Positions 5,147-20,561 are shown, counted from the first letter of the stretch. The stretch: 64,000 nt of DNA from Candidatus Dormiibacterota bacterium (GCA_049799515.1 JBARIA010000028.1:783-64782); one strand, 5' to 3'. The notes: a model not told the origin generated them from the sequence alone. A program made the numbers and translations.

Positions 5147-7633
5147 ATGAGTCAGAGGGTGCGGCAAACCGTCCTTCCGGAGCGCCCGGCCTCAACCTGG
5201 TCGGAGATCCTGAACGACCCCGAGCTGAGGTCGCGAATAGTTCTGGACCGGCTGATCCCGGCCAAGGAGGCCGAGTACCGACCCGTTCCCGGTGATATTC
5301 ATCCTCAGCTGCGCGACGGGCTACAGCGTCATGGGATCGCGGCCCTGTACACGCACCAGGTGGAGGCCATTGAACTGGCCATGGCCGGACGGAGCCTGGC
5401 AGTGGTTACCCCCACGGCATCTGGCAAGTCGCTCTGCTACCTGATCCCGGTCCTCGACGCCATCGCCAAGGCGCCCGAGTCCACCGCCATCCTTATGTAC
5501 CCCACCAAGGCTCTGGCTCAGGACCAGCTCACCGAGCTGCGCGGGCTCAGTGATGCCGCGGAGCTGGAGCTGCGTACCTTCACTTACGACGGCGACACCC
5601 CACCGGGCGCCCGGAGCGCCCTGCGCCAGGCTGGCCAGGTCGTGCTCACCAACCCCGACATGCTCCACACCGGGATCCTGCCCCATCACACCCAGTGGGT
5701 CCGTCTCTTCAAGGGCCTTCGCTACGTGGTCCTGGATGAACTCCACACCTATCGAGGCGTCTTCGGCAGCCATGTCGCCAACGTGATCCGACGCTTGGAT
5801 CGGATCTGCGCCTTCTACGGTGCGAAGCCGACCTACATCTGCTGCTCTGCCACCATAGCCAATCCCAAGGAGCTGGCCGAGCGGTTGTTGGGTCGCCAGG
5901 TTGAGTGCGTCGACCGGAACGGGGCACCGGCTCCGGCCCGGAGGGTGGTGGTGCTCAACCCGCCGATCGTCGAACCACGGCTGGGGATCAGACGGAGTGC
6001 AAGCCGCGAGGCCACCGGGTTGGTGCCGCAATTGGTCCGGAGTGGATCGCAGACGATTGTCTTTGGACAGACTCGGTTGCAGGTCGAACTCCTGCTCAAC
6101 TACCTGCGCCGGGAGCTGGAGAGTCCCGGAATGGCGAGCCAGGCCACTCTTCAGCACGAGGTCCGGGCGTACCGAGGGGGCTACCTGCCGCTCGAGCGGC
6201 GGGCGATTGAGTCCGGGCTCCGCACCGGTGCGGTGCGCTGCGTGGTCTCCACCAGCGCCCTGGAGTTAGGCATCGACATCGGCCGTCTCGATGCCGCAGT
6301 TCTGGTCGGTTACCCGGGAACCATTACCAGTACTTGGCAGCGTCTGGGCCGGGCGGGTCGCCGCAACGAGCCCGCTCTGCAGATGCTGATCACGGGTGGC
6401 GGTCCACTCGACCAATACCTGGCCAAGCATCCCGATTTTCTGCTGGACCGTTCGCCGGAGCATGCCTTCGTCGACCCGGACAACCTGCTCATTCTGGCGG
6501 GCCATCTTCAGGCGGCTATCTTCGAGCTTCCTCTGCGGGACGGTGAACCGTTTGGCCCAAGCGACGATGGCGAGCTGCTCGAGGTACTCCAGGAGGATGG
6601 GCTTATCCACCACTCCGGTGGCAGTTGGCACTGGGCCGCTGACGCCTTCCCGGCTGACGCCATCAACCTGCGCACGGCCGCCGCCAGCAATGTGGTGATC
6701 CTGGACACCGCGGTTGACGCGCAAGCGTCCTCGCAGGGGCCGCAGGGCCCCTTCTCGGGGAGCTCGGGCGGGCACTCAGGCGCTGGCTCACGGGTGGTGG
6801 GAGAGCTGGACGAGTGGTCGGCTCCCTTGTTGGTCCACGACGACGCCATCTACATGCATCAGGGAAGGCAGTACCACGTCGAGCGGTTGGACTGGGAGGA
6901 GCGGCGTGCCTATGTGCATCCGGTCTCGGTGGATTACTACACCGACGCCGATCTGCGGGTCGGCCTGCAGGTTCTAGAACGCATGGCCGGTCCGGTCTCG
7001 GACCAGGGACGGCTCACCTCGCGGGCGCATGGCGAGGTCCGGGTCAGCGTCCTCGCTGCCATGTACCGGAAGATTCGCCTGCTGACCAATGAAACAGTTG
7101 GTGCAGGGCCGATCCGGGTGCCTGAGCGTGATCTGCAGACCACCGCTTACTGGTGTTCGTTCGCGGCGGCGACGCCCGCATTGACCGGAACGCTCGAGGT
7201 CGGGGTGGAGGCAGTCGGTCATGTGCTGGGGCAGGTGGCCTGCTTCCTGGCCATGTGTGACCGCCGCGACCTCGGCGTGGTGGCCCAGGTCAGAGCTTCA
7301 TTGGGCTCCATCACTGCTCAACGGATCGTCCCCGCGCAGTCGGAGTTCATGCCTGGGGACCGGCCGCCGGTGCAGCCGGCCGGTATCCCTGAGGCGCCGG
7401 CCAGTAGTCGGGATGACCCACCATCGGTGTTCATCTACGACGTCCATCCCGGTGGAGTTGGGCTCAGCGCCCGTCTCTTCGATCTGCATGCCCAGCTGCT
7501 CGAGGCGGCGGCCAGCTTGCTCCGGGACTGCGACTGCGAGGCGGGTTGCCCAGCCTGCGTCGGTCCGGTGTCCGGAGTGGAGCCACAGGCCAAGGCCACG
7601 GCACTGGCCCTGCTGGAATCGTGCGGCTGGTGA
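5147..7633 (+). CDS. mrfA: DEAD/DEAH-box helicase with C-terminal DUF1998 four-Cys domain (MrfA/YprA-like)
   Basis: Walker A TPTASGKS, DELH box (VLDELHTYRG), helicase C motifs, and a C-terminal CDCEAGCPACVGP zinc-type motif. Start set at the ATG at 5147 (MSQRV) rather than 5093. Confidence 0.8.
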   Translation: MSQRVRQTVLPERPASTWSEILNDPELRSRIVLDRLIPAKEAEYRPVPGDIHPQLRDGLQRHGIAALYTHQVEAIELAMAGRSLAVVTPTASGKSLCYLIPVLDAIAKAPESTAILMYPTKALAQDQLTELRGLSDAAELELRTFTYDGDTPPGARSALRQAGQVVLTNPDMLHTGILPHHTQWVRLFKGLRYVVLDELHTYRGVFGSHVANVIRRLDRICAFYGAKPTYICCSATIANPKELAERLLGRQVECVDRNGAPAPARRVVVLNPPIVEPRLGIRRSASREATGLVPQLVRSGSQTIVFGQTRLQVELLLNYLRRELESPGMASQATLQHEVRAYRGGYLPLERRAIESGLRTGAVRCVVSTSALELGIDIGRLDAAVLVGYPGTITSTWQRLGRAGRRNEPALQMLITGGGPLDQYLAKHPDFLLDRSPEHAFVDPDNLLILAGHLQAAIFELPLRDGEPFGPSDDGELLEVLQEDGLIHHSGGSWHWAADAFPADAINLRTAAASNVVILDTAVDAQASSQGPQGPFSGSSGGHSGAGSRVVGELDEWSAPLLVHDDAIYMHQGRQYHVERLDWEERRAYVHPVSVDYYTDADLRVGLQVLERMAGPVSDQGRLTSRAHGEVRVSVLAAMYRKIRLLTNETVGAGPIRVPERDLQTTAYWCSFAAATPALTGTLEVGVEAVGHVLGQVACFLAMCDRRDLGVVAQVRASLGSITAQRIVPAQSEFMPGDRPPVQPAGIPEAPASSRDDPPSVFIYDVHPGGVGLSARLFDLHAQLLEAAASLLRDCDCEAGCPACVGPVSGVEPQAKATALALLESCGW

Positions 7634-9057
7634 CCACGCAACTTCGGCTCAAGATCGAGGCGCTCCAACGGGGCCGGAGTTGGGCTTCAGCTCCGTCAGG
7701 CAGCGATGACCGCTGGCTGGCGCTCGGACCGGCTATCCCGCCGCGGAGCGGGCGGACCCCCGACGGCGCCGTGGCGGAGCTTGGCTTCACCTGGGACGGG
7801 TCTCGCTCCCTCTGGGTGCGCCGCAACAGCCTCCGACTCGACGAGCTGGAGATAGATTTGAGGGCGCTCGCGCCAGCCGCTCTCCGGTCGCTCTCCCCCC
7901 TGGTAGGTGGTCAGCTGGACGGTCCGCTCGTCTGCTTCGATCTGGAGACGACTGGCCTCCAGCGGGGGACCGGCACGGTGCCGTTTCTCTACGGATGGGC
8001 GCTGGTCTCTGGCGACCGGGTCGAGGTCGAGCAGTGGCTCCTTCCCGACTTGGGCCAGGAGGGCCCCCTGGTTGCGGCGGGGCTGGAGATGATCAGGCGC
8101 GCCGGTCTCGTGGTCACCTACAACGGTGCCAGCTTCGACCTCCCCCTCCTCAGGACCCGCACTGTGATGACGGGACTGGAGAGACCCTGGCCGGCCACCC
8201 CTCATCTCGACCTTCTGCCACTGGTGCGTCGCCTCTTTCGCCACCGGCTGAGCCGTTGCAGTCTGAGGAGGGCGGAGGAGGAGTTGCTGGGACGCCCTCG
8301 AGAGGGAGATGTCCCCGGCAGTGAAGCTCCCGAGCGTTATCGAGGCTTTCTCCGAGACGGAGACCCGGCGCCACTGGAGCCGGTGTTGCGGCATAACCGT
8401 CTGGACCTCCTCTCGCTGATCCGACTGATCGACCACCTGGAACGACACCTCGAAGTAGCGCGGCCCCACCCCTCCGACTGGTACAGCCTGGGGCGGTATG
8501 CGGAGGACCGGGGCAACCTGGAGCGGGCTGACGCTCTCTACCTGGGCGCCGAGTCCGAGTCCCCGCCACCGCTCGATCGGGCCGCCGCGCTTCGCCGAAC
8601 CAGGATGCTGCGGCGCCAGGGTCTCGACGGAGAGGCCCGCGCCGCTTGGGAGGCGATCTGGGATCGGTGGCGCGATCCTGAGGCGGCCGAGGCGCTATGC
8701 GTCGACATGGAGCGCCGGACCGGCGACTTGGCGGGCGCTCTGGCGCTTGCCCAGGAGGCCCTCGCCACTGCAGCGGTGGGCTGGGATCGTAGGTTCGCCA
8801 AGCGGATCTGGCGACTCCAGGCTCGGCTCGAGAGCAGAGGCCTGTTGGAGAAGGTGAACCTCCCAACGCTGGCCGAGCCTGCACCGGATGCCCCCCGGCG
8901 CCCCTGGGCCGCCTGGCTGCCGGGCGGAACCTCTTACGAGGCGTGGCTGACCCTGAAGCGTGGTCGAGTCGGCCGAGCGACCACCACCATGGGCGCCGCC
9001 AGCCCGGTGGCTACCCGCAGGGTGTCCCTGGCCAGGGGGGTCAATCGGGAGCGCTGA
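7621..9057 (+). CDS. mrfB: RNase H-like (DnaQ-fold) exonuclease with TPR-like C-terminal region (MrfB/YprB-like)
   Basis: LVCFDLETTGL...VTYNGASFDLPLL exonuclease motifs and an Ala/Leu-rich helical repeat tail. GTG at 7621 overlaps the helicase stop by 13 nt. Confidence 0.7.
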   Translation: MRLVTTQLRLKIEALQRGRSWASAPSGSDDRWLALGPAIPPRSGRTPDGAVAELGFTWDGSRSLWVRRNSLRLDELEIDLRALAPAALRSLSPLVGGQLDGPLVCFDLETTGLQRGTGTVPFLYGWALVSGDRVEVEQWLLPDLGQEGPLVAAGLEMIRRAGLVVTYNGASFDLPLLRTRTVMTGLERPWPATPHLDLLPLVRRLFRHRLSRCSLRRAEEELLGRPREGDVPGSEAPERYRGFLRDGDPAPLEPVLRHNRLDLLSLIRLIDHLERHLEVARPHPSDWYSLGRYAEDRGNLERADALYLGAESESPPPLDRAAALRRTRMLRRQGLDGEARAAWEAIWDRWRDPEAAEALCVDMERRTGDLAGALALAQEALATAAVGWDRRFAKRIWRLQARLESRGLLEKVNLPTLAEPAPDAPRRPWAAWLPGGTSYEAWLTLKRGRVGRATTTMGAASPVATRRVSLARGVNRER

Positions 9058-9097
9058 CCCACCATCTCGACGATGGTTTCACCTGGTCGACTAGCCG

Positions 9098-10369
9098 TTG
9101 TCGATAACGTCCCCTTTGGTGCTAGCCCAATTGGTTCTGCTCGCGCTCTTCCTCTTGACTGCGGCCGCGGTCACGCTCCGACTGTGGCGGATTCCGGAGG
9201 GCTGGTGGCCCATCGCCGCGGTTGTGATCGCCCTGGCGGTCGGGGCGATCCCGGAGGCGACCGCCGCCCGAGGGCTGGGCAGCAGCCTCAATGTCCTGGC
9301 CTTCTTCGCGGGTCTGCTCCTACTGGCCTGGGTCCTGCGGGCGACGGGGTCGATGGTCCGTCTGCTGGATCGGATGGAAGGTTGGAGTGGGGATGACCCG
9401 CGCAGTCTTCTGACGGTAGTGGCGCTCGCCACCGTGGCCGTTACCGCTCTTCTCTCCAATGATGCTGCGGCGTTGCTGCTGGCTCCCGAGGTCCTTGACC
9501 GGCTCCAGCGGCGAGGACTTCCTCTGACGCCCTTCGTACTGACCATGGCTTTCAGCGCCAACGCTGCGTCCGCGCTGCTGCCCATCAGCAATCCCGTCAA
9601 TCTGCTGATCTTGGACCGGTCCAACCTGGCTCTCTCGAGCTACCTGACGGTGGTCACGCCCGGGGCTGTCGTCGGCGTTCTGATCACTGTGGCTGGCTGC
9701 CTACTGCTGACCGGCAGGGGAATTCCTCACCGTCAGCCCGCGGCGGCGGAGACTCCTCAGCAGCCCGCGGTCCATCGCCTCCGGGCCCGATGGGTCGCCG
9801 CCCTGCTGGCCGTCCTGACACTCACTGACGTGGGGTTCGCGGTGGCCCGCCTCCCCATCGGTCCGCCGACGCTTGTTGCGGGAGCACTGGCGACTGGGAT
9901 GATTTGGTCCGCCGCCGGATCCCGCGAACGTCCTCGAGGCTTGGGCTGGTCGATCCTAGCTCTGGTGGCGGGCTTCTCCGTCCTCGCGTCAGGGCTCGGT
10001 CAGTCCCCGTGGCTGGCAAGGGCCGCCGAGTGGTTCGCTGGCTCAGGCTCGATATGGGTGGGTGGGGTCGCCACCGGGTTGGTCACGGCGGTCGTCTCGG
10101 GGGTGATCAACAACCTGCCCGCGGCCCTGCTGGTCACCGCGGGTCTGCAGGCAGCTCACCACCTCGGCGCCCTCACCTTGCCAGCGATCGTGGGCGCAGA
10201 TTTCGGCCCCAACTTGGCCCCCTTCGGGTCTCTCTCCACGATCCTGATCCTCAGCGCCCTCCGGCCCCGGGGCCAACTGGTGCCGTGGGGGCAGGTGTGG
10301 AGGCTCGGGCTGATCTTGGGTCCGCTGGCGCTGCTCCCGACCATCTGCCTGGTGGCGCTCGCCCGCTGA
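9098..10369 (+). CDS. ArsB/NhaD (citrate transporter-like) superfamily permease
   Basis: Polytopic protein with LLSNDAAALLLAP and INNLPAALL motifs typical of the ArsB/NhaD permease fold. Start uncertain (TTG 9098 or GTG 9119). Confidence 0.7.
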   Translation: MSITSPLVLAQLVLLALFLLTAAAVTLRLWRIPEGWWPIAAVVIALAVGAIPEATAARGLGSSLNVLAFFAGLLLLAWVLRATGSMVRLLDRMEGWSGDDPRSLLTVVALATVAVTALLSNDAAALLLAPEVLDRLQRRGLPLTPFVLTMAFSANAASALLPISNPVNLLILDRSNLALSSYLTVVTPGAVVGVLITVAGCLLLTGRGIPHRQPAAAETPQQPAVHRLRARWVAALLAVLTLTDVGFAVARLPIGPPTLVAGALATGMIWSAAGSRERPRGLGWSILALVAGFSVLASGLGQSPWLARAAEWFAGSGSIWVGGVATGLVTAVVSGVINNLPAALLVTAGLQAAHHLGALTLPAIVGADFGPNLAPFGSLSTILILSALRPRGQLVPWGQVWRLGLILGPLALLPTICLVALAR

Positions 10370-10427
10370 TCGTGGCGGCCAGGCGAGATCGATTGTCGCT
10401 GGCCGTCGCTGGTGTCCTCGCTGCGCG

Positions 10428-10463
10428 GCGGGAGTGGCTCAGTGGTAGAGCGTCTCCTTGCCA
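10428..10463 (+). pseudogene. displaced 5' half of tRNA-Gly(GCC), nt 1-36
   Basis: 36/36 identity to 12638-12673. Identity ends right after the anticodon-loop heptamer CTTGCCA. Confidence 0.85.
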
Positions 10464-10493
10464 CGGTGGCCGCCGCGGGGCCGATGTGAGCTG

Positions 10494-11048
10494 TCACCTG
10501 AATCCTCCTTCTCCTGCGACGGCCCCATCCTTCGGTTGAAGCTCGAAGAGTGGGTTGAGTCGAGCTGCGGTGATGTAGTCCTCGAGCGTGTCATCGACGC
10601 GGACCCGCAACGTCCACAGGACCCCGATGGGCGGCCTAAATCTTGACCCGAGCAGCGCACGGAAGACGCGCGACCGCCGGAACGGCTGGAGTGCGCGCTG
10701 CAGCACATCTCCCGCTTCCTCGGGCGAGAGCTCGACGGCATGGATCGCTACCCGACGGCCTCCAGGATGGGTGACTATGGCCTCGGCGTCCACCCGAAGG
10801 TTGGCGACCCATCCGGTCTGGCCGTAGGAAGCCTGCACGATCCAGCGACCGTCGCGGTCGAGCATGCCAACCGGTACCGTTCGAAGCTTGCCGGACCGCC
10901 GACCGCGGGTCGTGAGGAGCACGTTTGGGGCACCCGTCGGTAGCCCGGCCGAGATCAGCCAACGGGCCAGCGGGTTGAGTAGGCGGAGCATTCGCCCGGC
11001 CACCCGATTGCGGACATCCAGCCGAGGGGAAGCGAGACGATCATTCAT
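10494..11048 (-). CDS. nitroreductase-family deazaflavin (F420)-dependent oxidoreductase (DUF385/Ddn-like)
   Basis: LLTTRGRRSGKLRTVPV...GWVANLRVD pattern typical of the DUF385 split-barrel family. Start set at ATG 11048 (MNDRL), because the 11216 start would overlap the divergent sigma gene. Confidence 0.75.
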   Translation of the reverse strand: MNDRLASPRLDVRNRVAGRMLRLLNPLARWLISAGLPTGAPNVLLTTRGRRSGKLRTVPVGMLDRDGRWIVQASYGQTGWVANLRVDAEAIVTHPGGRRVAIHAVELSPEEAGDVLQRALQPFRRSRVFRALLGSRFRPPIGVLWTLRVRVDDTLEDYITAARLNPLFELQPKDGAVAGEGGFR

Positions 11049-11056
11049 GAACAGAG

Positions 11057-11083
11057 CACGAACCGAACCACCCGGATGTGACG
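11057..11083 (-). promoter_or_regulatory. candidate ECF41-type promoter for the DUF385 gene
   Basis: The minus strand reads CGTCACA-n16-CGTG, 8 nt before the ATG. The ECF41 target consensus, as I recall it, is TGTCACA-n16-CGTC. Confidence 0.4.
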
Positions 11084-11104
11084 GCCAGGATCGCTCCGCG
11101 ACCA

Positions 11105-11131
11105 TGTCACACTCGATGGATTCGATCCGTG
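11105..11131 (+). promoter_or_regulatory. candidate ECF41-type promoter for the sigma factor gene
   Basis: TGTCACA-n16-CGTG on the plus strand, 34 nt upstream of the GTG at 11166. Confidence 0.4.
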
Positions 11132-11165
11132 TTCCTATTATGACGACCCGGAGCAGGACGACGAC

Positions 11166-12041
11166 GTGACCAGACGCGACTGGCTTGCTGCGGAGTTCGA
11201 GCGACACCGTCGGCACCTGCGCGCGGTCGGCTACCGCATGCTCGGATCGGTATCCGAGGCCGAGGACGCCGTGCAGGAGGCCTGGCTGCGGCTCGATCGA
11301 GGCGACCCGGGCGGGACTGATGACCTGCGGGGCTGGCTAACGGTGGTGGTAGGCCGGATCTGCCTGGATACCCTGCGCAGGCGGAAGGCACGCAGGGAGC
11401 AGCTCGCTGGTTCGTGGCTTCCGGAGCCGATCAGTTGCACCGCGGCCGACCACGACCCAGAGCGCGACATAGTTATGGCCGACTCGGTCGGGCTGGCCTT
11501 GCTGGTGGTCCTCGAGTCGCTGACCCCATCGGAGAGGCTCGCGTTCGTGCTTCACGATGTATTCGGCATTCCGTTCCTGGAGATCGCCCCGCTGGTGGAG
11601 CGCTCGCCGTTGGCGACCCGGCAACTCGCCAGCCGAGCCCGGCGACGGGTCAGAGCCGAGGCGCCGGACCCGGACGCCGATTTTGCAGTACAGCGAGGGG
11701 TAGTCGACGCCTTCCTGGCCGCCGCACGCAAGGGCGACTTCGAGGCTCTCCTTCAGGTGCTGGATCCGAACGCCGTCCTCTGCATCGACGGAGGCCCGAA
11801 TGCACCGCGACCGCTCGCGCAACCACCAATCGTCGGTGCCGTGGCTGTGGCAAACGGCGTAAAGAATTTCCGGGATGCCGGGGCCAAGGTCGAGCCAGTG
11901 ATTGTCAACGGCGCTCCGGGGCTGGTGGTTCGGTATCCGGCGCGATCACTCCTCGCCGCCTTCACGGTGGCCAATGGGCGGATCGTCGAAATCGACCTCA
12001 TTGCCGACCCGGACAAGCTGCGGAGTCTGACGCTGGACTGA
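11166..12041 (+). CDS. ECF sigma factor, group ECF41 (SigJ-like) with fused C-terminal regulatory domain
   Basis: Sigma-2 and sigma-4 regions plus the ECF41 signatures WLPEP (linker), DGGPN (DGGGK-like) and DPDKL (NPDKL-like) in a roughly 100-aa C-terminal extension. No anti-sigma gene adjacent. Confidence 0.85.
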   Translation: MTRRDWLAAEFERHRRHLRAVGYRMLGSVSEAEDAVQEAWLRLDRGDPGGTDDLRGWLTVVVGRICLDTLRRRKARREQLAGSWLPEPISCTAADHDPERDIVMADSVGLALLVVLESLTPSERLAFVLHDVFGIPFLEIAPLVERSPLATRQLASRARRRVRAEAPDPDADFAVQRGVVDAFLAAARKGDFEALLQVLDPNAVLCIDGGPNAPRPLAQPPIVGAVAVANGVKNFRDAGAKVEPVIVNGAPGLVVRYPARSLLAAFTVANGRIVEIDLIADPDKLRSLTLD

Positions 12042-12637
12042 CTGCGCTCCAGGACCGCTGACCTCTTCGTGGCGCGATCACGGTGCTCGCGAAGCAGCTG
12101 AAGGCCGGAGGGAGTGCTGCGAGCTGCGGTGGCTTTGAGACCCTTCGGCGATGGCCGTTGGCGAGTTGAACGCAGAGAGAGACGATCTCCTGCACCCGAG
12201 GGTCCACGCTGCCGTAGTAGATCGACCGCCGCTGGGGACGTCCCCTCACCAACCCGGACTTCACCAGTCTCCAATTAGCGGCCTACGCCTTGATGATCGG
12301 CGAGGCCCCAAGCCCGCCTCGAACCAAACCGGAAAAAGGGGGCCCGTCGGGTTACCAACGGATGAGGGTAGCCCGCAATTCCGTGATGCCTTGGGGCAGC
12401 GACCTACGCAACCGAGATAGCAACGGAGCACCCCAGCGATGGAGGCAGTTGGGGCGGCCGGTATCCTGCCTCGCCACCGCTCGGTCCGAGATGGACGGGC
12501 TGGGGCTTATCGCCTTCCCTATACTCTCCCGGTACGGTCCCGACATCCGCAAGGAATAGCCGTAAGAAGCGTGATCTCCCTAGTCGACACGAATCAGTGC
12601 TAAATCCCTGATCTCACGCGGAGTTCGGGGCCAGATC

Positions 12638-12712
12638 GCGGGAGTGGCTCAGTGGTAGAGCGTCTCCTTGCCAAGGAGAAGGTCGCGGGTTCGACCCCCG
12701 TCTCCCGCTCCA
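12638..12712 (+). tRNA. tRNA-Gly (anticodon GCC), CCA encoded
   Basis: GCGGGAG...CTCCCGC acceptor stem, GGCTCAGTGGTAGAGC D-arm, anticodon loop TTGCCAA, GGTTCGACC T-loop, and terminal TCCA. Confidence 0.95.
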
Positions 12713-12725
12713 CTGATCTCAGCTA

Positions 12726-12744
12726 GAGCTTATAAGTGGACAAA
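12726..12744 (+). repeat. 19-nt direct repeat copy 1 (GAGCTTATAAGTGGACAAA)
   Basis: 17/19 identical to 13887-13905. Lies 14 nt after the tRNA 3' end. Confidence 0.6.
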
Positions 12745-12927
12745 CGGACCGCCGCTCCCACACGCACAACGTTGCACAGCCGCACCAGACGCCCTTCCCC
12801 AACCGACCGATACCAGGGGCGCTCTGGGCCGGTCTGCCCATGCGCGGAGCCGCCGGGGGTCGACCGGCGCGCGGGAGGATGAGGCGGCTATCATCCCGCT
12901 AGCGCTGGCTTGGGAGGAGGGTCGGAC

Positions 12928-13713
12928 GTGCTGCTGGACGGCAGGACCGCGGTCGTGTACGGAGGGGGCGGCGCGCTCGGCGGCGCGGTCGCGGAGGCGT
13001 TCGCTGAGCAGGGGGCGCACGTCATCGTGGCGGGGCGCACGCCGTCGTCGCTCGAGCGGGTCGTCAAACCACTCACCGAGCGCGGTCTCAGCGCGCAGGT
13101 CGCCCGGGTCGACGCGCTCGTCGAGAGCGAGGTCGAGGCGCACCTCGACGGGGTCGTCTCCGAACTCGGAGGCATCGACATCTCGTTCAACGCGATCAGC
13201 GTTGCCTACATCCTCGGAGGACCGCTTCACGAGATCCCCGTGGACGACTTCGTCAGGGGTATCGCCGATGGGATGCGCACCAACTACCTCACCGCTGTCG
13301 GAGCTGCGCGACGGATGGCGGCGCGCCACACCGGCGTCGTCCTCGGGCTCACCGCCAGCTCCTGTCGCCGGCCGCTTGCCCACCAGGGCAGCTTCTCCGT
13401 CGCTGGGGCCGCCATCGAGGCGCTCTGCCGTCAGATCGCGACGGACTACGGTCCCGAGGGGGTGCGGGCGGTGTGCATCCGGTCAGCCGGGTCGCCTGAC
13501 GCGCCCGGGGTCGATGCCGCCCTCACCGCGCTCGCCGAGGTCGAGGGCATCTCCCGCGACGCGTTCGAGGCGCGTATGGCCGAACGTACCATGCTCAAGC
13601 ACATGCCGCGGCTGCGTGAGATCGCCAACCTCGCTGTGCTGGCTGCCTCCGACCTCGCGTCGTCGATGACTGGCGTCATCGCCAACGGCACCTGCGGCGA
13701 AGCGACCGACTGA
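12928..13713 (+). CDS. SDR family oxidoreductase
   Basis: TAVVYGGGGALGGAVAEAFAEQGAHVIVAGRT Rossmann motif. GGGAGGAGGG Shine-Dalgarno sequence 8 nt before the GTG at 12928. Confidence 0.8.
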   Translation: MLLDGRTAVVYGGGGALGGAVAEAFAEQGAHVIVAGRTPSSLERVVKPLTERGLSAQVARVDALVESEVEAHLDGVVSELGGIDISFNAISVAYILGGPLHEIPVDDFVRGIADGMRTNYLTAVGAARRMAARHTGVVLGLTASSCRRPLAHQGSFSVAGAAIEALCRQIATDYGPEGVRAVCIRSAGSPDAPGVDAALTALAEVEGISRDAFEARMAERTMLKHMPRLREIANLAVLAASDLASSMTGVIANGTCGEATD

Positions 13714-13886
13714 CCTCTCAACGGGTCGTTGGGTCGGTGACAGTGGGCTGGTTCGCGAGCATGAGTTTGCCGCGGTGCGTGAGCGACGCTCCGTACCGGC
13801 TAGCCGATTCAGCACCTCACCGAAGCCCGAATTGGAGTGCCTACGGCCCGGAGGCAAGCTGTAAGTAACGTATTGCCGCCTGCGGG

Positions 13887-13905
13887 GAGCAGATAAGTGG
13901 ACAAA
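13887..13905 (+). repeat. 19-nt direct repeat copy 2 (GAGCAGATAAGTGGACAAA)
   Basis: 17/19 identical to 12726-12744. Lies 46 nt before the displaced tRNA 3' half. Confidence 0.6.
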
Positions 13906-13951
13906 GTGGTGACCCCGCCGATCTCGGCCGCATAGCGCATAGCTTCAAATA

Positions 13952-13996
13952 CTTGCCAAGGAGAAGGTAGCGGGTTCGACCCCGACTCCCGCTCCA
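13952..13996 (+). pseudogene. displaced 3' half of tRNA-Gly(GCC), nt 30-75
   Basis: Starts with CTTGCCA. 42 identical columns of 46 versus 12667-12712, with one indel. CCA is retained and the T-stem pairing is lost. Confidence 0.85.
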
Positions 13997-14071
13997 GCGA
14001 GTCCCCTGCCGACCCCCGAGCGCCGATCTAGGCGGAGCCTGGGGTAGCGACAACTAGGGTCGCGTTCGTCG

Positions 14072-14392
14072 TCAGCTGGACTTTCCGGCGCCGTCTCCTT
14101 CGGCCTGCTGGCCTACCCCAGGTGGCACCCACGAGGAGTCGGCGCTGGAGCTGCCCGCCTGGTTCGCGTCTTGAGAGGGTACCGGTGTGCTGGCGGTCGA
14201 GGCGCCAGCGCCTCCCAGGCCGTGATCTTTGCCGTACTCGTTGGCCCGCGCCGCCGCGTTGGCGGCGGCCTCCTTGGCGGCCGCAATCTTGGCGTCAATC
14301 ATCGGCGCCTTCTCGGCTGCCTTGGCTTGGAGATCGGCCGCCACCGCTTTGCTCTTGTCATCGATCGACTTGTACAAGTCCTTGAAACCCAT
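14072..14392 (-). CDS. hypothetical small Ala/Lys-rich helical protein
   Basis: Strong AAGGAGG Shine-Dalgarno sequence before the ATG at 14392 (MGFKDLYKSIDDKSK...). The upstream part of the 192-aa track ORF is not protein-like. Confidence 0.6.
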   Translation of the reverse strand: MGFKDLYKSIDDKSKAVAADLQAKAAEKAPMIDAKIAAAKEAAANAAARANEYGKDHGLGGAGASTASTPVPSQDANQAGSSSADSSWVPPGVGQQAEGDGAGKSS

Positions 14393-14612
14393 CTCAGCCT
14401 CCTTAGGCAGCATCAAGTGGTGATCGAGACGGAGTCTATCGCGGACCTTCATTAAGTGGTGATTCCCAGAAGGGCAGACGGATCGGGTAGAGCGGGCCGG
14501 CCACTCGATGTCTTGCTGTCGGCGGTGTGCGGGTAATTGCCGCCGTCCGGGAAGACCTCTCATGGCTAGACTCCGATCGTTGGCGCAGCCGGAGCGATCA
14601 CGGAGGGTAGTG

Positions 14613-14891
14613 ATGGTATCCAGTGAGGGAAGCGGCACCCGAGAGGCCACTTGGAAGCAATACGGGCGGGCCCTGATTCACGCCATGGCGGAGGTCACCG
14701 GTGAGATCCCGGAGGAGTTCCACGACCTCCTCTTGGAGACGGCTGATTACTGGCTCTCTTTGGGGATGACGATCGGAACCCAGCAGCCGGAACAGGCGCT
14801 GAGGCTGCTTGACCTAATCGAGACCGACACTGCGGAGCAGAAGGAACTTGCCGCCGACGCCCAGGCCTTCTCCGCGGAGGCCCTGGCATGA
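14613..14891 (+). CDS. hypothetical acidic 92-aa protein
   Basis: GGAGGG Shine-Dalgarno sequence 5 nt before the ATG at 14613. Helical, Glu/Asp-rich sequence. Confidence 0.55.
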   Translation: MVSSEGSGTREATWKQYGRALIHAMAEVTGEIPEEFHDLLLETADYWLSLGMTIGTQQPEQALRLLDLIETDTAEQKELAADAQAFSAEALA

Positions 14892-15055
14892 GGAGGCGCA
14901 GCTTGGTCTCCCAGATGTACCGGGCGGCCAGGGTCACCAATGACCTCAGCACCCTGGCCTCCGGGAACCCCCACCGGATTGCCCGGCGAGCCCGGAACAA
15001 GATCGTGGGCCGGGCGTTGGGCCGGGCGGGCATCTGGCGGGCCCTCTGGCGCTGA
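14888..15055 (+). CDS. hypothetical highly basic 55-aa protein (not in the ORF track, below its length cutoff)
   Basis: ATGA overlap with the preceding stop. MRRRSLVSQMYRAARVTNDLSTLASGNPHRIARRARNKIVGRALGRAGIWRALWR has 14 Arg/Lys and 1 Asp. Confidence 0.5.
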   Translation: MRRRSLVSQMYRAARVTNDLSTLASGNPHRIARRARNKIVGRALGRAGIWRALWR

Positions 15056-15167
15056 GGCGCCGGGCCCAGCGGCTCATAAATGCTCCGGTAGAGGCCCCAT
15101 TCGGAATCCGATATCCTGAGTGCCGGTCGAATTCGGCGGGTGGGCGAACGGCACGAGGACGTGAGCC

Positions 15168-16187
15168 ATGACGGCACGGGTGACGTCGCCGGAGGTGATC
15201 CGCCGGATCAAGCTGACCATGGTCTGGGGCGTGGCCCTGCTTTGGTTGCTCGATGCCGCCCTTCAGGCGCAGCCAACGATGTTCACGGTCGACTTCGTCA
15301 GCAACATCATGAAGCCGTCGATCGCCATCTCCCCCTCAGCGCTGGGGGCGCTCTCGACCTGGACCCTGCAGTTCATCAGTCCCCACATCGCCGACTGGAA
15401 CTGGCTGTTCGTCATCGTGCAGGCGGCGATCGCGGTGGGCCTGATTACTGGCCTGCTTCGGCACGACCACCGCCTGATTCGAGCTGGACTTCTGCTCTCG
15501 ATTGCCTGGGGAATCGGGGTTTGGGTATTCGGGGAGGGAACCAGCGGAGTCTTCACCGGAAACGGGACACTGCTCACCGGAGCTCCGGGATCGGTCACGC
15601 TCTATGTCGCGATCGCTGTGCTCTACCTGCTCCCCGATCGTTGGTGGCAGCTCTCAGGCCGGTTCTGTCTACCTCGAGACCTGCTCGCATTGGTGTTCCT
15701 GTACGGCGCGGCGGCCCAGATCGCCACCCCTGGGTTTTGGGGCTCCAGGGGCACCGCCGTGTTGATCGAGGGGCAGGCGAGCATGGCACCCTCTTGGATG
15801 GTGGCCTCGATGACCCCACTGGTGACCTATACCCACGCCCATCCCGTCCTCTTCAATGCGGTCTTCGCCGCGTCGCTGTTGGCAGTGGCACTGCTTCTCT
15901 TCGGGCGGGCTCCCAAGGCTATTGGCTTCCTGCTTCTAGGGGCGGTGTTGGGGGTCATGTGGTATTGGGGCCAGGCGTTTGGTGGGATCTTCTCGGGCAT
16001 GGGAACCGATCCTGGTAGTCCGCCTCTGCTGACGCTACTGGCAGTTCCTGCCGTGGTGACCTGGCACTTGCGGCGGCACCCCGTCTCCCTCGAAGCCATG
16101 CCCGGTGGTCCGGCAGCTCGGTTAGTGCGCAGTGAAGCAGCGGCAGCAGCGCAGAGCTCGGCGCTGGCCGACGGTCCCCGGGGATGA
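15168..16187 (+). CDS. polytopic membrane protein, unrecognised family (paralog A of the 20562 membrane domain)
   Basis: About 8 predicted TM segments. Colinear similarity to residues ~75-365 of the 585-aa protein: LQAQP, SIAWG..VWV.GEG, GAPG, GRAP[KR], W.GQ.FG......TDP..SPLL. Confidence 0.8.
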   Translation: MTARVTSPEVIRRIKLTMVWGVALLWLLDAALQAQPTMFTVDFVSNIMKPSIAISPSALGALSTWTLQFISPHIADWNWLFVIVQAAIAVGLITGLLRHDHRLIRAGLLLSIAWGIGVWVFGEGTSGVFTGNGTLLTGAPGSVTLYVAIAVLYLLPDRWWQLSGRFCLPRDLLALVFLYGAAAQIATPGFWGSRGTAVLIEGQASMAPSWMVASMTPLVTYTHAHPVLFNAVFAASLLAVALLLFGRAPKAIGFLLLGAVLGVMWYWGQAFGGIFSGMGTDPGSPPLLTLLAVPAVVTWHLRRHPVSLEAMPGGPAARLVRSEAAAAAQSSALADGPRG

Positions 16188-16231
16188 GTCCAGCTGGCCC
16201 GTTGGAGACGGGAGAGTTCTGAGAGTGGCCT

Positions 16232-16987
16232 TTAGCGTGGCAGCAGCGGCAGTCCGTCGGAGTCCAGCGCGGTCAGTCGGATGGGGGAGAAGCCGGTGAC
16301 TCCCAGCCGGCCGCCGGCTCGCCGCAGAGTTGAATTGGCGGACGCGAGATTTTGGGCGGCCCATCCCGCCTGCCGGAGGTAGGCGGTGGCGGCACTTTGA
16401 TCTCCTGGGCGGCGCAGTAACTCCTCCTCATTTCGCATGGCGGGAACTACGTCCTCCTCGGCCCACACCCCAAGGCAGCTGACCGCGTAGCCGAGGTGCA
16501 GCGCCGAAAGCGAAGTTGGCACCGCGTACAGAGTGAGATCGAAGATGGCATCGTCGGTGCCGGGTGAGCAGGCGCGGACGGTGGCCCGAGCCGCTCTCTC
16601 GGCCGGGATCGCAGAATCGGGCTGTTGTTCCGTCAGCCGCCAAGTCGAGATCGCGGTCGCCGCCCGGGAGTTGCAACCAGCCAGGTCGGCTCGGAGAGTT
16701 CGCACCATGGTTGTGAAATCGGATCGTTGCTGGGCAGCCCCGGCAGGTCGGCTGACCAGGATCGCCGCACCGACCGCCACCAAGGTGATCACGACCACCG
16801 CTACTGCCAGCCAGCGCCAGCGGCGCAGAGTGCGACCGAGCGGGGGAGACCCCGAGCCAGGCACTGGAGACGACAAGGACGGTTTCCGCTCTGTGCTCAC
16901 CGTGCTCCTCCCACGAAGAGTCGGCAGCGGCGGGCAGGGCGAGGGGTCTGGAGATCGGGGAGGGCTGCCGCCGGCTCGTCTCGGCAC
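16232..16987 (-). CDS. hypothetical N-terminally membrane-anchored protein downstream of copA
   Basis: Pro-rich N-terminus, one TM segment (WLAVAVVVITLVAVGAAILV), then a 170-aa domain with 4 Cys. Lies 21 nt downstream of the copA stop. Confidence 0.6.
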   Translation of the reverse strand: MPRRAGGSPPRSPDPSPCPPLPTLRGRSTVSTERKPSLSSPVPGSGSPPLGRTLRRWRWLAVAVVVITLVAVGAAILVSRPAGAAQQRSDFTTMVRTLRADLAGCNSRAATAISTWRLTEQQPDSAIPAERAARATVRACSPGTDDAIFDLTLYAVPTSLSALHLGYAVSCLGVWAEEDVVPAMRNEEELLRRPGDQSAATAYLRQAGWAAQNLASANSTLRRAGGRLGVTGFSPIRLTALDSDGLPLLPR

Positions 16988-17008
16988 ACGCCGGACGGTG
17001 GCCGGTGG

Positions 17009-19429
17009 CTACTCCGCGAAGTCAGGGAGCGCTCGAACCGGTCCCCCCGACGCCGCGGCAGCCAGTTGGGGTCGAGGTGGGCCCGGCGACCCCTCGAAGT
17101 GTCGCAGCCGGGAGCTGTTCCATACCACGAACGCCGAGGAAAGGGCCATGGCTCCGCCGGCGATCAGGGGATCCAGCCGACCTAGGGCGGCGAGAGGAAT
17201 GGCGATTACGTTGTATCCGAAGGCCCACATCAGATTGCCGCGGATGGTGCGGATGGTTCGGCGTGCCAGTCGGAGGGAATCCGGGACGACTCTGAGATCG
17301 TCGCGGACCAGGATCAGGTCGGCAGCGTTGATCGCGACATCCGTCCCCGAGCCGATCGCCAGCCCCAGATCGGCCTGAACCAGGGCTGGACCGTCGTTGA
17401 CTCCATCGCCGACCATGGCCACCGAGTGGCCTCGCGCCTGCAACTCCCTGACGATCCTGACCTTCTCCGTCGGCAGGGCACCAGCGACCACATCGTGGAT
17501 CCCGACCTCGGCGGCGACGGATCGAGCGGTCGCCTCGTTGTCCCCGGTCACCAAGATGCAGTGGAGTCCCAGCTGCTGCAACTCCCGGACCGCCGGAGCG
17601 GCCGACGGCTTGATCACGTCGGCGACCGCCAGCGCTCCCACGGTCTGACCATCCCGGGCCACCAGGACCGTGGTGTGGCTCATCACCTCCCAGCTGCGGC
17701 ACTGGGCGGCGATCTCCTTCGGGATGCTGACCCCTTGCTCCTGGAGGAGCTTTTGCCTGCCCACCAGCAGCCAGCGGCCGTCCACCATTCCACTAGCTCC
17801 GAGCCCGGCCAGGCTCTGGAAGTCAGCTGGTTGCGGCAGCTCCGGGAATTCGGAGCGAGCGGCGGCCGTGAGGGCCGCCGCAACCGCGTGCTCGCTGGCC
17901 TGCTCCAGGGCTCCGACCTCGTGCAGCACGCTGGCGCGGTCGACCCCGGGAACCGTGATCAGCCCTGCCAACTCCATCTTGCCTTGGGTAACCGTGCCGG
18001 TCTTGTCCAGAACCACTGTGTCAACGGTTCTGGAAGTCTCGAGACCCTGGTGCCCCTTGAAGAAGATCCCCAGTTGGGCGCCCCGCCCGGAGGCGACCCG
18101 CAGGGCTGCCGGGGTTGCCAGACCCAGGGCGCAGGGGCAGGCGATGATCAGCACGGCTAAGGCGGCGCTGAAGGCGGACTCCAAGGATCCCGAGAGCAGC
18201 ATCCAGACGATGAAGGTGAGGATCGCGCCGGCGATCACCGTCGGCACGAAAACAGCCGAGATCCGATCCGCCAGGCGCTGTACCGAGGCCTTCTGGAGCT
18301 GGGCCTGCTCGACCAGTTCGACCATGTGTGCCAGCTGGGTGTCTCCTCCAAGCTTGGTGGCCTTGACGATCAGCCGGCCGGTCACCACCACGGTCCCTCC
18401 TAGGACTCGGCGCCCCTCGAGGACGTCGATCGGAACCGACTCTCCAGTCATCGAACTGCAGTCGACCGCCGACTGGCCCAGCACTACCCGTCCGTCGGTG
18501 GCGATCGTCTCGCCCGGGCGGACGATGAACCGATCTCCCAGGCGGAGCTGGGCCACCGGAAGTCGCCGCTCGGAATCGTCGTCCTGGAGGATCGATACGT
18601 CCTTGGCCCCCACGGCAGCCAGCGCTCTGAGGGCATTGCCGGCCCGCCGGCGAGCTCGGGCCTCGAAGTAGCGCCCGGCGAGCAGGAAGGTGGTGACCCC
18701 AGCCGCGACATCCAGGTAGAGGGCTCCGCCCCCTTGATGGAGCAGGACGTAGAGCCCGGAGCGGCCCGGCTCACTGAAGTCCCTGAAGAACATCGCGTAG
18801 AGCGACCAGCTGGTGGCGGCGATGATTCCCATCGAGACCAGGGTGTCCATGGTCGAAGTTCCGTGCCGCGCGGCCCGGAGGGCGGCCCTGTGGAACGGCC
18901 AGGCTGCCCACAACACGACCGGAGCGCCCAGGGCGATGAACAACCACTGCCAGCCGGGAAAGCGCAGCCAGGGAAGCAGTGAGAAGGCTGTCGACCACTC
19001 GCCGAGCGGCATGAAGAGGAGAGCGGCCACCAGCAGTCGCCGTCCCAGGTACCGTACTCGCCGGTCATCTTCGGCCGCGTCGTCGTCGTCGCTGTGGCTG
19101 CTGCCAGCCAGCTCTGCCCCGTACCCCACCGCCTCCACTCGCTTGATCAGGAGAGGGATCGGTACCTCGGAGAAGAGAGAGACGGTCGCCCGCTCCGAGG
19201 CGTAGTTGACCTGGGCGCTCACGTGGTCGAGCTGGTTGAGGCTCCGCTCGATCTTGGCGGCGCAGGCGCCGCAACTCATCCCGCGGATCGTGAGTTGGAG
19301 CTGCCGAAATTGCGGGCCTGGCTCTTCACCGACCGGGGCCACCGCCACCGCCTCGCCTTGAGGGGGGGCCGCCTGGTCGGCGAGACCGGTTGCCGGATGA
19401 ACTCCGGGGTTCTCGGAGATTTCCTTCAT
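17009..19429 (-). CDS. copA: copper-translocating P1B-type ATPase
   Basis: N-terminal HMA domain GMSCGACAAKIE, CPCALGLATP transmembrane metal site, DKTGTVT phosphorylation site, and GDGVNDGPAL. Confidence 0.95.
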   Translation of the reverse strand: MKEISENPGVHPATGLADQAAPPQGEAVAVAPVGEEPGPQFRQLQLTIRGMSCGACAAKIERSLNQLDHVSAQVNYASERATVSLFSEVPIPLLIKRVEAVGYGAELAGSSHSDDDDAAEDDRRVRYLGRRLLVAALLFMPLGEWSTAFSLLPWLRFPGWQWLFIALGAPVVLWAAWPFHRAALRAARHGTSTMDTLVSMGIIAATSWSLYAMFFRDFSEPGRSGLYVLLHQGGGALYLDVAAGVTTFLLAGRYFEARARRRAGNALRALAAVGAKDVSILQDDDSERRLPVAQLRLGDRFIVRPGETIATDGRVVLGQSAVDCSSMTGESVPIDVLEGRRVLGGTVVVTGRLIVKATKLGGDTQLAHMVELVEQAQLQKASVQRLADRISAVFVPTVIAGAILTFIVWMLLSGSLESAFSAALAVLIIACPCALGLATPAALRVASGRGAQLGIFFKGHQGLETSRTVDTVVLDKTGTVTQGKMELAGLITVPGVDRASVLHEVGALEQASEHAVAAALTAAARSEFPELPQPADFQSLAGLGASGMVDGRWLLVGRQKLLQEQGVSIPKEIAAQCRSWEVMSHTTVLVARDGQTVGALAVADVIKPSAAPAVRELQQLGLHCILVTGDNEATARSVAAEVGIHDVVAGALPTEKVRIVRELQARGHSVAMVGDGVNDGPALVQADLGLAIGSGTDVAINAADLILVRDDLRVVPDSLRLARRTIRTIRGNLMWAFGYNVIAIPLAALGRLDPLIAGGAMALSSAFVVWNSSRLRHFEGSPGPPRPQLAAAASGGPVRALPDFAE

Positions 19430-19714
19430 AGCCGACCTGCCAAGGCGCTCGGCACCCGGTCTGAGAGCTCAGCCGAACTGATCGACCAGCTGAGCACAGG
19501 GGCTCCGGTCGAGGTCCGGAGGCTAGACCCAGACCCGTTCTCTGCTGAGCGGATACCGGCGGTTCCGATCACGATGCGATCTACTCTAACGAGGGCAGAG
19601 TTGGCCGGTCGACTGTGGTGGCACCTCCTATGCCGTGGACTGGGCCCCCCCTTCCGACCGAATGCCCCGCTGGCGGCAGATTTCCGAGGACCCCAGCGCC
19701 GCTGGCCACCGAGC

Positions 19715-20350
19715 TCAGGTGAAAAGTTGGGGCCACTGGGTGACGGTGAGCATCAGCATCATCGAGAAAGCGATCGTGAAGTCGCCGTTGGTGCCTAGAG
19801 TCCTGAGCGACGGGCGGTCCCCGCGGCTCGCGGCGGGGGCCCCCGAGGCCCGGCGGGCCGCGCTCAGGGTGCTGCCGATGAAGCCTAGGTAGATGACCAA
19901 GCAGGCGATGGTTATCCCGGAGACGCTAGTCGCCGAAAACATGTAAGCCATCGACGCGTTGATGAAAAGATGCCAGCACTCACTGCTTCGATCGCAGGAA
20001 TTCCAGCGAACAATCAGCCGGATCAGAAAAATTCCAGCAAACACTGCGAATGCGACAACATAGCCCAGCAGTGGACCGAGGTACGGAATGGTGCCGATCA
20101 TCAGCAGTGCCATGCCGATCATGCCCACGGCGTGGACTGTGTGACCCAAAAGATCGGGGAGTGTGTGATAGCGGGCGATGTGTCCGCGCTGTAGATATCG
20201 CCAGATGAAGATGAACAGAACGTAGGAGGAAAGAATGACAACGATGATCAGAGCCAGCTCGATGACGGGAGGTCCCGACTGAGAATGTGATGGAGGAACT
20301 GACGATGCGCACCCCGGCATCACCATGCCAGGCATGCACTCGGCTTTCAT
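19715..20350 (-). CDS. membrane protein with Met/Cys-rich N-terminus (DUF5134-like, tentative)
   Basis: MKAECMPGMVMPGCASS... followed by 5-6 TM segments with conserved His. Lies in a markedly lower-GC patch. Confidence 0.7.
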   Translation of the reverse strand: MKAECMPGMVMPGCASSVPPSHSQSGPPVIELALIIVVILSSYVLFIFIWRYLQRGHIARYHTLPDLLGHTVHAVGMIGMALLMIGTIPYLGPLLGYVVAFAVFAGIFLIRLIVRWNSCDRSSECWHLFINASMAYMFSATSVSGITIACLVIYLGFIGSTLSAARRASGAPAASRGDRPSLRTLGTNGDFTIAFSMMLMLTVTQWPQLFT

Positions 20351-20561
20351 CGATCACTTCTCCCCAATTGGCGCACGCTCCCTCGACGTCATCGCCAAGA
20401 CGCGACCATCGGGGTAGAGCACCGAAGCGTCGCTTCCACGCAGCTCGGCGCTGAAATGATAGACGCCGGAAGTTCGGCCGTCGCTCCGATCGTCCCAATT
20501 GGAGCCCAGAGTATTATGGCTGGTGCCGACTGGGGCCACAGTCTAGGGACCGGGGACCGAA

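Follow-up and report, generated by a model that had tools for sequence, protein, structure and literature searches.

How does a bacterial genome come to carry one working tRNA gene that lies between the two separated halves of another copy? The question is raised by a 64-kb stretch of DNA from a Candidatus Dormiibacterota bacterium (the window; coordinates given without a locus name are positions within it), in which ARAGORN calls a single tRNA, a tRNA-Gly(GCC) at 12638–12712 that scores 71.2 bits with the Rfam tRNA model. The 5' part of this gene recurs upstream of it and the 3' part recurs downstream. The analysis described here points to two independent integrations into the anticodon loop of the gene, one of them in the reversed orientation, both now represented by integrase-less remnants at a tRNA-Gly(GCC) hotspot. 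We consider this explanation probable, though well short of certain.

The two halves lie on the same (+) strand as the intact gene, the 5' half upstream and the 3' half downstream, which is the layout of fragments at Islander-type tRNA islands. Searched as a 36-mer, nucleotides (nt) 1–36 of the tRNA occur twice without mismatch, at 10428–10463 and at 12638–12673, and none is expected from shuffled sequences. Global alignment of the 3' half (13952–13996) with tRNA nt 30–75 gave 43 identical columns out of 46, with two mismatches, one missing C and the CCA end kept. Both fragments break within CTTGCCA (nt 30–36; the loop is nt 31–37 and the anticodon nt 33–35), that is, at the canonical anticodon-loop sublocation, and the distance between the two shared 7-mers is 3,488 bp. 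On the outer side of each half the tRNA similarity drops abruptly. Past nt 36 of the 5' half a weak in-register resemblance is seen in ungapped comparison (13/21 in the window and 14/21 in the related contig L011), and it was not significant in gapped alignment against shuffles (p about 0.3). Most of this anatomy had been given in a preliminary description of the window. Its tRNA call, the 36/36 identity of the 5' copy, the spacing of the 7-mers, the gene calls (DUF385, sigma factor and SDR, with which Pfam agrees) and the absence of an integrase or transposase from the interval (Pfam and PHROG scans of the open reading frames, ORFs) were all reproduced. For the 3' copy the location, start, indel and CCA stand, and the count of 42 of 46 becomes 43 of 46; the statement that similarity is absent past the junctions holds as regards the abrupt stop, qualified by the 13/21 resemblance.

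The native position of the gene was established by comparison with relatives retrieved via the transporter gene at 9098–10369, which are loci from Candidatus Dormiibacterota metagenome-assembled genomes (MAGs) and soil metagenomes (designated L001 and so on). The left flank, in the order helicase, RNase_H_2 protein and transporter, is syntenic in all of the retrieved loci. In L002 and L004 a single intact tRNA occupies the native place, 59 nt from the transporter stop codon, and represents the unoccupied attachment site (attB); in the window the 5' half follows the transporter stop codon after 58 nt. These 58 nt are homologous to the DNA that precedes the tRNA (or its stump) in L002, L004 and L007 (z 4.8–8.8 against shuffles), and the DNA before the working tRNA is unrelated to this native upstream region. 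The 5' half, which lies at the native tRNA position behind the native upstream region, is accordingly a stump that the original gene left there; the foreign DNA before the working tRNA in turn means that the 5' part of the working gene, together with its upstream region, came with the insert. A 5' fragment at the native site and a working gene with a foreign 5' flank are what a reversed element leaves behind. The tRNA itself is identical at 75/75 positions in the window, L002, L003 and L004, the flanks of which are only 70–80% identical.

Counting the window, eight alleles in seven lineages could be compared. A 5' stump sits at the native place in six of the eight, and an intact tRNA in the other two (L002 and L004), so that intact as well as differently occupied sites came out of the alignment of relatives that the preliminary description had recommended. 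Identity of the stump to tRNA nt 1–36 is 36/36 in the window and L007, 35/36 in L006 and 28/36 in L001; the stump of L011 matches L011's own tRNA at 35/36 positions, and that of the L003/L017–L019 group is perfect over 14 nt and then alignable with indels up to nt 32. All of these stumps (window, L001, L003/L017 group, L006, L007 and L011) reach the anticodon loop, and the sequences adjoining them fall into at least four unrelated families: one shared by the window and L011, one shared by L006 and L007 over about 185 nt, that of L001, and that of the L003/L017 group. No DNA similarity was found among the arms of the different left-hand inserts besides that of L006 with L007 and that of L011 with L017 (upstream of the tRNA). 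Such repeated, independent breaks in one 7-nt segment require a site-specific enzyme, and the recurrence of the break in five other lineages bears out the earlier reading of the breaks as anticodon-loop crossover scars. L006 and L002 are 99.9% identical across 8,158 nt and diverge from tRNA nt 38: L002 has an intact tRNA (11329–11403) followed by an integrase, and L006 a 5' stump (8121–8158) followed by the unrelated arm that it has in common with L007. Their near-identity up to the tRNA indicates that the insertion is polymorphic inside one population.

The block between the stump and the working tRNA is of foreign origin. L011, a 73-kb Joint Genome Institute (JGI) contig reached via a 93%-identical SigJ protein, contains a 5' stump with the same junction, the DUF385 gene, the SigJ gene and 98 nt further, at 91% DNA identity to window 10428–12139. 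At the junction CTTGCCA is followed by AGGTGCC in L011 and by CGGTGGCC in the window. Synonymous divergence (dS) between the window and L011 is 0.167 for DUF385 (nonsynonymous divergence, dN, 0.093) and 0.186 for SigJ, and the non-coding parts of the left block are 83–89% identical; for the flanking helicase and RNase_H_2 genes dS is 1.3–1.5. A dS of 0.17–0.19 in the block against 1.3–1.5 in its flanks shows that the block was acquired horizontally and that one lineage, if not both, received it well after the two had separated. Copies of the DUF385–SigJ pair in L012–L014, L020, L021, L022 and L023/L024 are 88–89% identical to that of the window and at most 96% identical among themselves. Each lies between different neighbor genes, without a piece of tRNA-Gly, and the module of L015 is rearranged. 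The neighbors include a HipA toxin gene, an RsmD-like methylase gene with an IS21-like gene, and an ArsR/AHSA1/CMD cluster. Homology ends within about 20 nt of both stop codons, and the pair is, as judged from these comparisons, a portable two-gene module, i.e., cargo. Two further candidates were rejected, both on the grounds of non-significant gapped alignments against shuffles (p 0.09–0.4): the DUF385 end of the module as a decayed tRNA 3' half, and decayed tRNAs hidden in the other contexts of the module.

The product of the sigma factor gene (11166–12041) matches Sigma70_r2 and Sigma70_r4_2 above the Pfam cut-offs and SnoaL_2 with 20.8 bits, the cut-off being 27. In general, ECF41 (SigJ-type) sigma factors possess regions 2 and 4 and a SnoaL-like C-terminal extension, and an oxidoreductase-type gene is adjacent to them. 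The left block is like these systems in that the sigma factor gene stands beside a small redox-enzyme gene with no anti-sigma gene apparent, a likeness that concerns the cargo only and not the tRNA structure. The part of the block closest to the working tRNA (12140–12637) gave no homolog in any locus compared and no Pfam or PHROG match, and no gene remnant was recognized in it. It contains a terminator-like hairpin with a T-run (12343–12362, minus strand), which may be the trace of a gene since lost or belong to a small RNA. In L021 a tRNA/tmRNA-like 3' end (T-arm, acceptor strand and CCA; 3546–3644, minus strand) lies 60 nt past the SigJ stop codon; it gave a weak match to the Rfam tmRNA model (16.9 bits, E 0.002) and may be another tRNA gene fragment beside the module.

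The right block, with its SDR gene, has a different history. In L016–L019 the tRNA is followed by a 29-nt flank, the SDR gene and genes that are syntenic with the window from 14095 onward. On the basis of this synteny the SDR gene was considered as native chromosome, a reading that was dropped once L027 showed the arms of 12713–13951 joined. L027, which contains no tRNA, runs from an aldehyde-dehydrogenase gene through AGATAAGTGGACA, CTGATCTCAGCC and CAGATA to CTTGCCA; 3' of CTTGCCA follow tRNA nt 37–75, CTGATCTCAGCTAGAG, the SDR upstream region, the SDR gene and 107 nt more. The arm on the left of CTTGCCA matches window 13877–13951 (26/40 ungapped, about 75% gapped over 75 nt), and the arm on the right is identical to window 12674–12728 at 55/55 positions and continues into the SDR gene at 90.5% identity. 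From its sequence, L027 is the P-O-P' form (attP-type or from a tandem array) that matches the attL and attR of the window. For the right block, a joined-arm (attP) form in L027 and an empty site (attB) in L002 and L004 have therefore both been found. The interior that is present in L027 is missing from the right block, which is thus a deletion derivative.

Two motifs are common to both arms of the right block: ATAAGTGGACA lies at 12732 on one arm and at 13893 on the other, and CTGATCTCAGC lies at 12713, its counterpart at 13918 being degenerate. The order tRNA, CTGATCTCAGC-like motif, 7 nt and AAGTGGACA-like motif is also found 3' of the tRNA in L011 and L017. We regard CTGATCTCAGC and ATAAGTGGACA as candidate arm-type binding sites; these AT-richer motifs occur on both sides of the crossover (window 12713–12724, 12732–12744, 13893–13905 and 13918–13929; L027 1013–1060). 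A copy of CTGATCTCA (12608–12616) also lies 22 nt before the working tRNA. A separate motif, cAAGGA..CGT..TAAG, was noticed in the left-hand insert DNA of four lineages (window ~12551–12570, L011 ~11440–11460, L017 ~6735–6755, L006 8285–8300 and L007 11500–11516). It contains CCAAGGAG, which equals tRNA nt 34–41, and is ribosome-binding-site-like. A scan of 10300–14200 for sigma-70 consensus promoters, which is not calibrated for this phylum, found nothing.

The dS of the SDR gene between the window and L017 is 0.33, and that of the surrounding flanks is 0.8–1.2. After the SDR gene the window has the 3' stump and the L017 group has a gene for a 435-aa membrane protein; T-arm-like sequence right after the SDR stop codon of L017 was tried as a decayed 3' stump and rejected, as it did not rise above background in a scan of the locus. 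On the right side of L011 the tRNA is followed by a similar flank, a gene for a 401-aa membrane protein, a 3' stump from nt 30 (CTCGCCA) and a gene for a 403-aa paralog, and in L017 a frameshifted fragment of this family of about 400 aa lies between the tRNA and the SDR gene. The family, a multi-pass membrane protein without a Pfam family, is represented by the paralogs that flank the 3' stump in L011 (11845–13050 and 13544–14755) and by the frameshifted fragment (6963–7919) and an intact copy (8907–10214) in L017; it has been lost from the window. Tracing the aldehyde-dehydrogenase gene beside the L027 arm for a full-length element led only to an island-like contig, L028, with no integrase in view. 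A tRNA-Gly 3' fragment (L028 2598–2646, minus strand) lies there 7 kb from an aldehyde-dehydrogenase gene related to that of L027. In L025 (10881–10952) an 89%-identical SDR gene adjoins a tRNA-Gly(CCC) on the opposite strand, in an unrelated context.

Whether the 3,488 bp represent one insertion or two can be judged from how the blocks are distributed. L011 has the same left block and left junction as the window but a different right block and right junction; the L017–L019 group has the same tRNA flank and SDR gene but a different left block; and in L027 the far arm of the right block is joined to the tRNA 3' half and the SDR gene, not to the DUF385 end. The two blocks assort independently, which makes a single 3,488-bp unit unlikely and favors two integrations. 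A single composite element, inserted once with a 7-bp duplication and carrying its own complete replacement tRNA-Gly as cargo, would agree with the fact that the halves joined at CTTGCCA form a full tRNA and that the sole intact copy lies inside, with the weak tRNA-like sequence past the left junction of the window and L011, and with the presence of the CTGATCTCA motif on both sides of the working tRNA. Besides being at odds with the three comparisons above, it sits poorly with the unequal state of the halves (36/36 identity in the 5' half, three differences in 46 columns in the 3' half), and we judge it very unlikely. The picture of one tRNA gene interrupted by a single 3,488-bp insert, given in the preliminary description, is accordingly contradicted by L011, L017–L019 and L027. 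Of the two possibilities that the description raised, a small integrase-less cassette mobilized in trans and a pair of successive integrations, one from each side, that were stripped down to cargo, the latter fits best.

In the explanation that we favor, recombination of the tyrosine-integrase type, with its crossover in CTTGCCA, would have struck tRNA-Gly(GCC) at least twice. A reversed element would have supplied the 5' part of the tRNA and a new upstream region, leaving the original 5' half (10428–10463) stranded behind the native promoter. The remnant of this element would be 10464–12637, which consists of the horizontally mobile DUF385–SigJ pair and 0.6 kb of non-coding DNA. A conventional element would have supplied the 3' part of the tRNA from the other side and pushed the original 3' half to 13952–13996; its remnant would be 12713–13951, comprising two arms and the SDR gene. 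The working tRNA (12638–12712) would then be a gene rebuilt between the two remnants, both of which would be decayed elements of the cis-mobilizable element (CIME) type, with attL and attR retained and the integration genes gone. We infer the enzyme, the order of the events and the loss of the integrases by deletion.

Enzymes of the expected kind do occur at this gene in the clade. Tyrosine integrases lie directly 3' of tRNA-Gly in L002 and L003, a 3' fragment matching the L003 element is found about 17 kb further on, in L016, and in the viral contig L009 a tRNA-Gly fragment from nt 27 adjoins an integrase. Within the interval 10464–13951, the ORFs contain no Phage_integrase, other recombinase or transposase domain in Pfam, and the small ORFs of 12042–12637 and 13483–14053 gave no integrase match with Pfam or PHROGs. 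In scans of viral contigs neither the 5' half nor the L006/L007 arm had a match, and the 3' part of the tRNA matched only unrelated low-GC phage or host contigs.

Several observations weigh against two integrations. In the interval and in the window ORFs tested (most of those with at least 220 aa by Pfam, together with tblastn of the L002 and L003 integrases), neither an integrase nor an excisionase nor a transposase turned up. Two left-hand inserts could be followed over their full length, that of window/L011 and that of the L003/L017 group, and both lack an integrase, as does the stretch of 10 kb visible beyond the L001 stump. For the left block, the loci compared yielded no joined-arm (attP) form. 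The 0.5 kb upstream of the working tRNA differs between the window and L011, though it would be expected to lie within the arm of the element. As for the right block, L027 could instead be an attR followed by native chromosome, and in L016–L019 the tRNA flank and SDR gene are syntenic without a significant 3' stump after the SDR gene. Finally, the stump and the working tRNA share the D-stem variant of their own genome: GCTC/GAGC in the window (10428–10463 and 12638–12673) and GCGC/GCGC in L011 (9263–9298 and 11509–11544). To account for the shared variant in both genomes, either the 36-nt repeats would have undergone gene conversion or each element would have to match its host; the perfect 36/36 identity is therefore no safe clock.

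Both blocks might instead be live CIME-like cassettes that are moved in trans by an integrase from elsewhere in the genome or from an incoming element, with the invariant anticodon loop of tRNA-Gly as their shared docking site. In favor of this, both blocks keep direct-repeat, att-like ends. The left block is much younger than its flanks in two genomes, the right block has a joined-arm form, the left-hand inserts of relatives lack an integrase in the parts available, the clade has integrases that target this tRNA-Gly, and the tRNA is 75/75 identical across lineages with flanks of 70–80% identity. However, neither of the window's blocks was observed in excised form, no integrase was found in the window ORFs tested, and the decaying 3' stump and the deletion scar of the right block suggest inactivity. 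The L027 join, moreover, may lie inside a tandem array instead of marking a free circle. The L027 joined form and the L002/L006 polymorphism may be read as indirect hints of CIME excision or transfer; overall, we regard live cassettes as unlikely. Alternatively, the blocks could be chromosomal DNA that lay beside tRNA-Gly in other strains and arrived through aberrant excision by an integrase at a secondary site, as happens in specialized transduction, or through tRNA-anchored homologous import, rather than as dedicated elements. The ordinary chromosomal gene content is consistent with this, as are the occurrence of DUF385–SigJ in about half a dozen non-tRNA contexts, the paralogy between the 401-aa gene of L011 (between tRNA and 3' stump) and the 403-aa gene past the stump, the frameshifted fragment of the same family after the tRNA in L017, and a resemblance between the 10 nt before the window's working tRNA (GGGCCAGATC) and the 10 nt before the L011 stump (GGGCCAGACC). 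On the other hand, SigJ natively upstream of an unsplit tRNA-Gly was found in no genome searched, the right block resembles a dedicated element in that its two arms carry corresponding motifs and also occur joined, and the recurrent break at nt 36–38 still requires a site-specific enzyme. Captured chromosome of this kind seems unlikely to us.

Least probable are tandem tRNA-Gly copies that decay in place, or half-copies that arose as assembly artefacts, both of which the preliminary description had named as outcomes that would overturn it. The left copy of the L003/L017 group can be loosely aligned past the anticodon loop, GGAGA and GTCTCCC being spaced about as expected, but this extended alignment is not significant (p about 0.4), identity in the window falls from 36/36 to background at one point, and relatives carry one tRNA at the site. 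The junction between the 5' half and the DUF385 gene recurs in the independent assembly L011, so that the half-copies are real and not assembly artefacts; a mis-join at a repeat, furthermore, would leave the repeat whole and not halved. This explanation is largely refuted. The coordinates of the features that enter the two-integration reading, and of the conserved flanks, are given in Table 1.

Table 1. Features of the tRNA-Gly(GCC) locus and its flanks in the 64-kb window
Feature	Position	Strand	Basis or comparison
CitMHS/ArsB-type transporter gene, last of the conserved left flank	9098–10369	+	Pfam; synteny with L001–L004, L006, L007, L017
Upstream (promoter) region native to the original tRNA-Gly	10370–10427	+	Homology to L002, L004, L007 upstream regions
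5' stump (nt 1–36) left by the original tRNA-Gly(GCC); forms the left junction of the left block	10428–10463	+	36/36 identity
CTTGCCA (tRNA nt 30–36), putative crossover segment, copy 1	10457–10463	+	tRNA identity stops here
Left inserted block, 2,174 bp, without recombinase gene; gives the working tRNA its 5' part and upstream region	10464–12637		Absent from L002, L004
Portable DUF385–SigJ module, 1.58 kb	10472–12047		Recurs in L012–L014, L020, L021, L022, L023/L024
DUF385/F420H2-dependent quinone-reductase-like gene, 184 aa	10494–11048	-	Pfam PF04075; intact orthologs in L011, L012
SigJ/ECF41-like sigma factor gene, 291 aa, divergent from the DUF385 gene	11166–12041	+	Pfam; homologs named SigJ by NCBI
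Unique non-coding part of the left block, directly 5' of the working tRNA	12140–12637		No homolog; CTGATCTCA at 12608–12616
Working tRNA-Gly(GCC), with a 5' part supplied by the left block and a 3' part supplied by either the right block or the chromosome	12638–12712	+	ARAGORN, Rfam
Right block of 1,239 bp with both arms, derived by deletion from a conventional 3'-replacing element	12713–13951		L027 arm junction
Arm adjoining the tRNA: CTGATCTCAGCT, 7 nt, ATAAGTGGACAAA	12713–12744	+	Same layout 3' of the tRNA in L011, L017–L019
SDR-family oxidoreductase gene, 261 aa, right-block cargo	12928–13713	+	Pfam; Dormiibacterota MAGs encode proteins with 92% identity
Far arm of the right block: ATAAGTGGACAAA at 13893–13905, CTGATCTCAGCC-like CCGATCTCGGCC at 13918–13929	13887–13951	+	Homology to L027 left arm
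Displaced, decaying 3' stump of tRNA-Gly (nt 30–75)	13952–13996	+	Starts with CTTGCCA; 43/46 identical columns
Conserved right flank: unnamed genes, P-type ATPase, SCO1-like gene, BNR-repeat protein gene	14095–22437		72–78% DNA identity with L016–L019

At the start of the right flank, four ORFs of 14072–16987 have no Pfam family. Their position and sequence are kept in L016–L019 (72% DNA identity), and they are therefore genuine genes of the flank.

The locus is best understood by comparison with islands that are already known. Islands in tRNA genes whose attP is centered on the anticodon (a sublocation class of Williams) are commonplace: the Islander collection comprises 2,083 such sites, and of its 3,919 islands a 3' fragment is listed for 3,760 and a 5' fragment for 159 (PMC4383910). 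Zhao & Williams described the reversed orientation (2002, J Bacteriol 184:859, cited in PMC6563490), which is termed 'considerably less frequent' (PMC6563490). Like Islander-type islands, the window has a crossover in the anticodon loop, a target rebuilt by element DNA, a 3' fragment in the same orientation, and attL and attR that correspond to a joined form; the textbook form for the same tRNA is seen in the viral contig L009. Unlike them, it has no integrase between tRNA and fragment, a lack that would lead the Islander integrase filter to reject both blocks, and its right block is only 1.2 kb long. With reversed (5'-replacing) elements the left block shares the upstream 5' fragment and a working gene whose 5' part and upstream region derive from inserted DNA; in contrast to such elements elsewhere, it has no integrase, and no joined-arm form of it has been seen. 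The 5' relic, which the preliminary description had singled out as unusual, is indeed rare but not new, as the 159 islands attest. At this locus, however, the reversed type accounts for six of eight alleles, compared with about 4% of Islander islands.

CIMEs keep attL and attR, have lost their integration and transfer genes, and frequently form tandem arrays (PMC5704250). They were defined for remnants of ICEs (integrative and conjugative elements) and IMEs (integrative and mobilizable elements) in Firmicutes, at the 3' ends of genes (PMC5704250). Both blocks of the window are likewise bounded by direct repeats of the target and lack recombinase and transfer genes, and the L003 genome, with its 5' stump, insert, tRNA, integrase element, 3' fragment and SDR block, recalls the tandem accretion of CIMEs. 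The locus differs from CIMEs in that the remnants flank the tRNA on both sides, and any mobilization of them is hypothetical. In sum, it departs from known islands in detail only: the remnants are two-sided, the reversed type predominates locally, and the phylum is new for the structure. A broader proposal, in which the perfectly conserved anticodon loop of tRNA-Gly(GCC) serves Dormibacterota as a two-sided docking site where lineages swap integrase-less blocks such as the DUF385–SigJ pair in trans, with promoter-replacing insertion on the 5' side as the usual mode, strikes us as unlikely.

The locus provides a worked example of a tRNA gene that gathers foreign DNA on both sides, in a poorly studied, uncultured soil phylum. 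Two aspects go beyond the textbook: the normally rare 5'-replacing orientation dominates here within the clade, and the blocks are short and recombinase-less and yet clearly exchanged between lineages. If the blocks are not moved in trans, the locus would be an ordinary decayed pair of islands and mainly a caution for the annotation of tRNA genes and islands, since software that requires an integrase would overlook it. If they still move in trans, it would serve Dormibacterota as a naturally occurring landing pad for gene cassettes.

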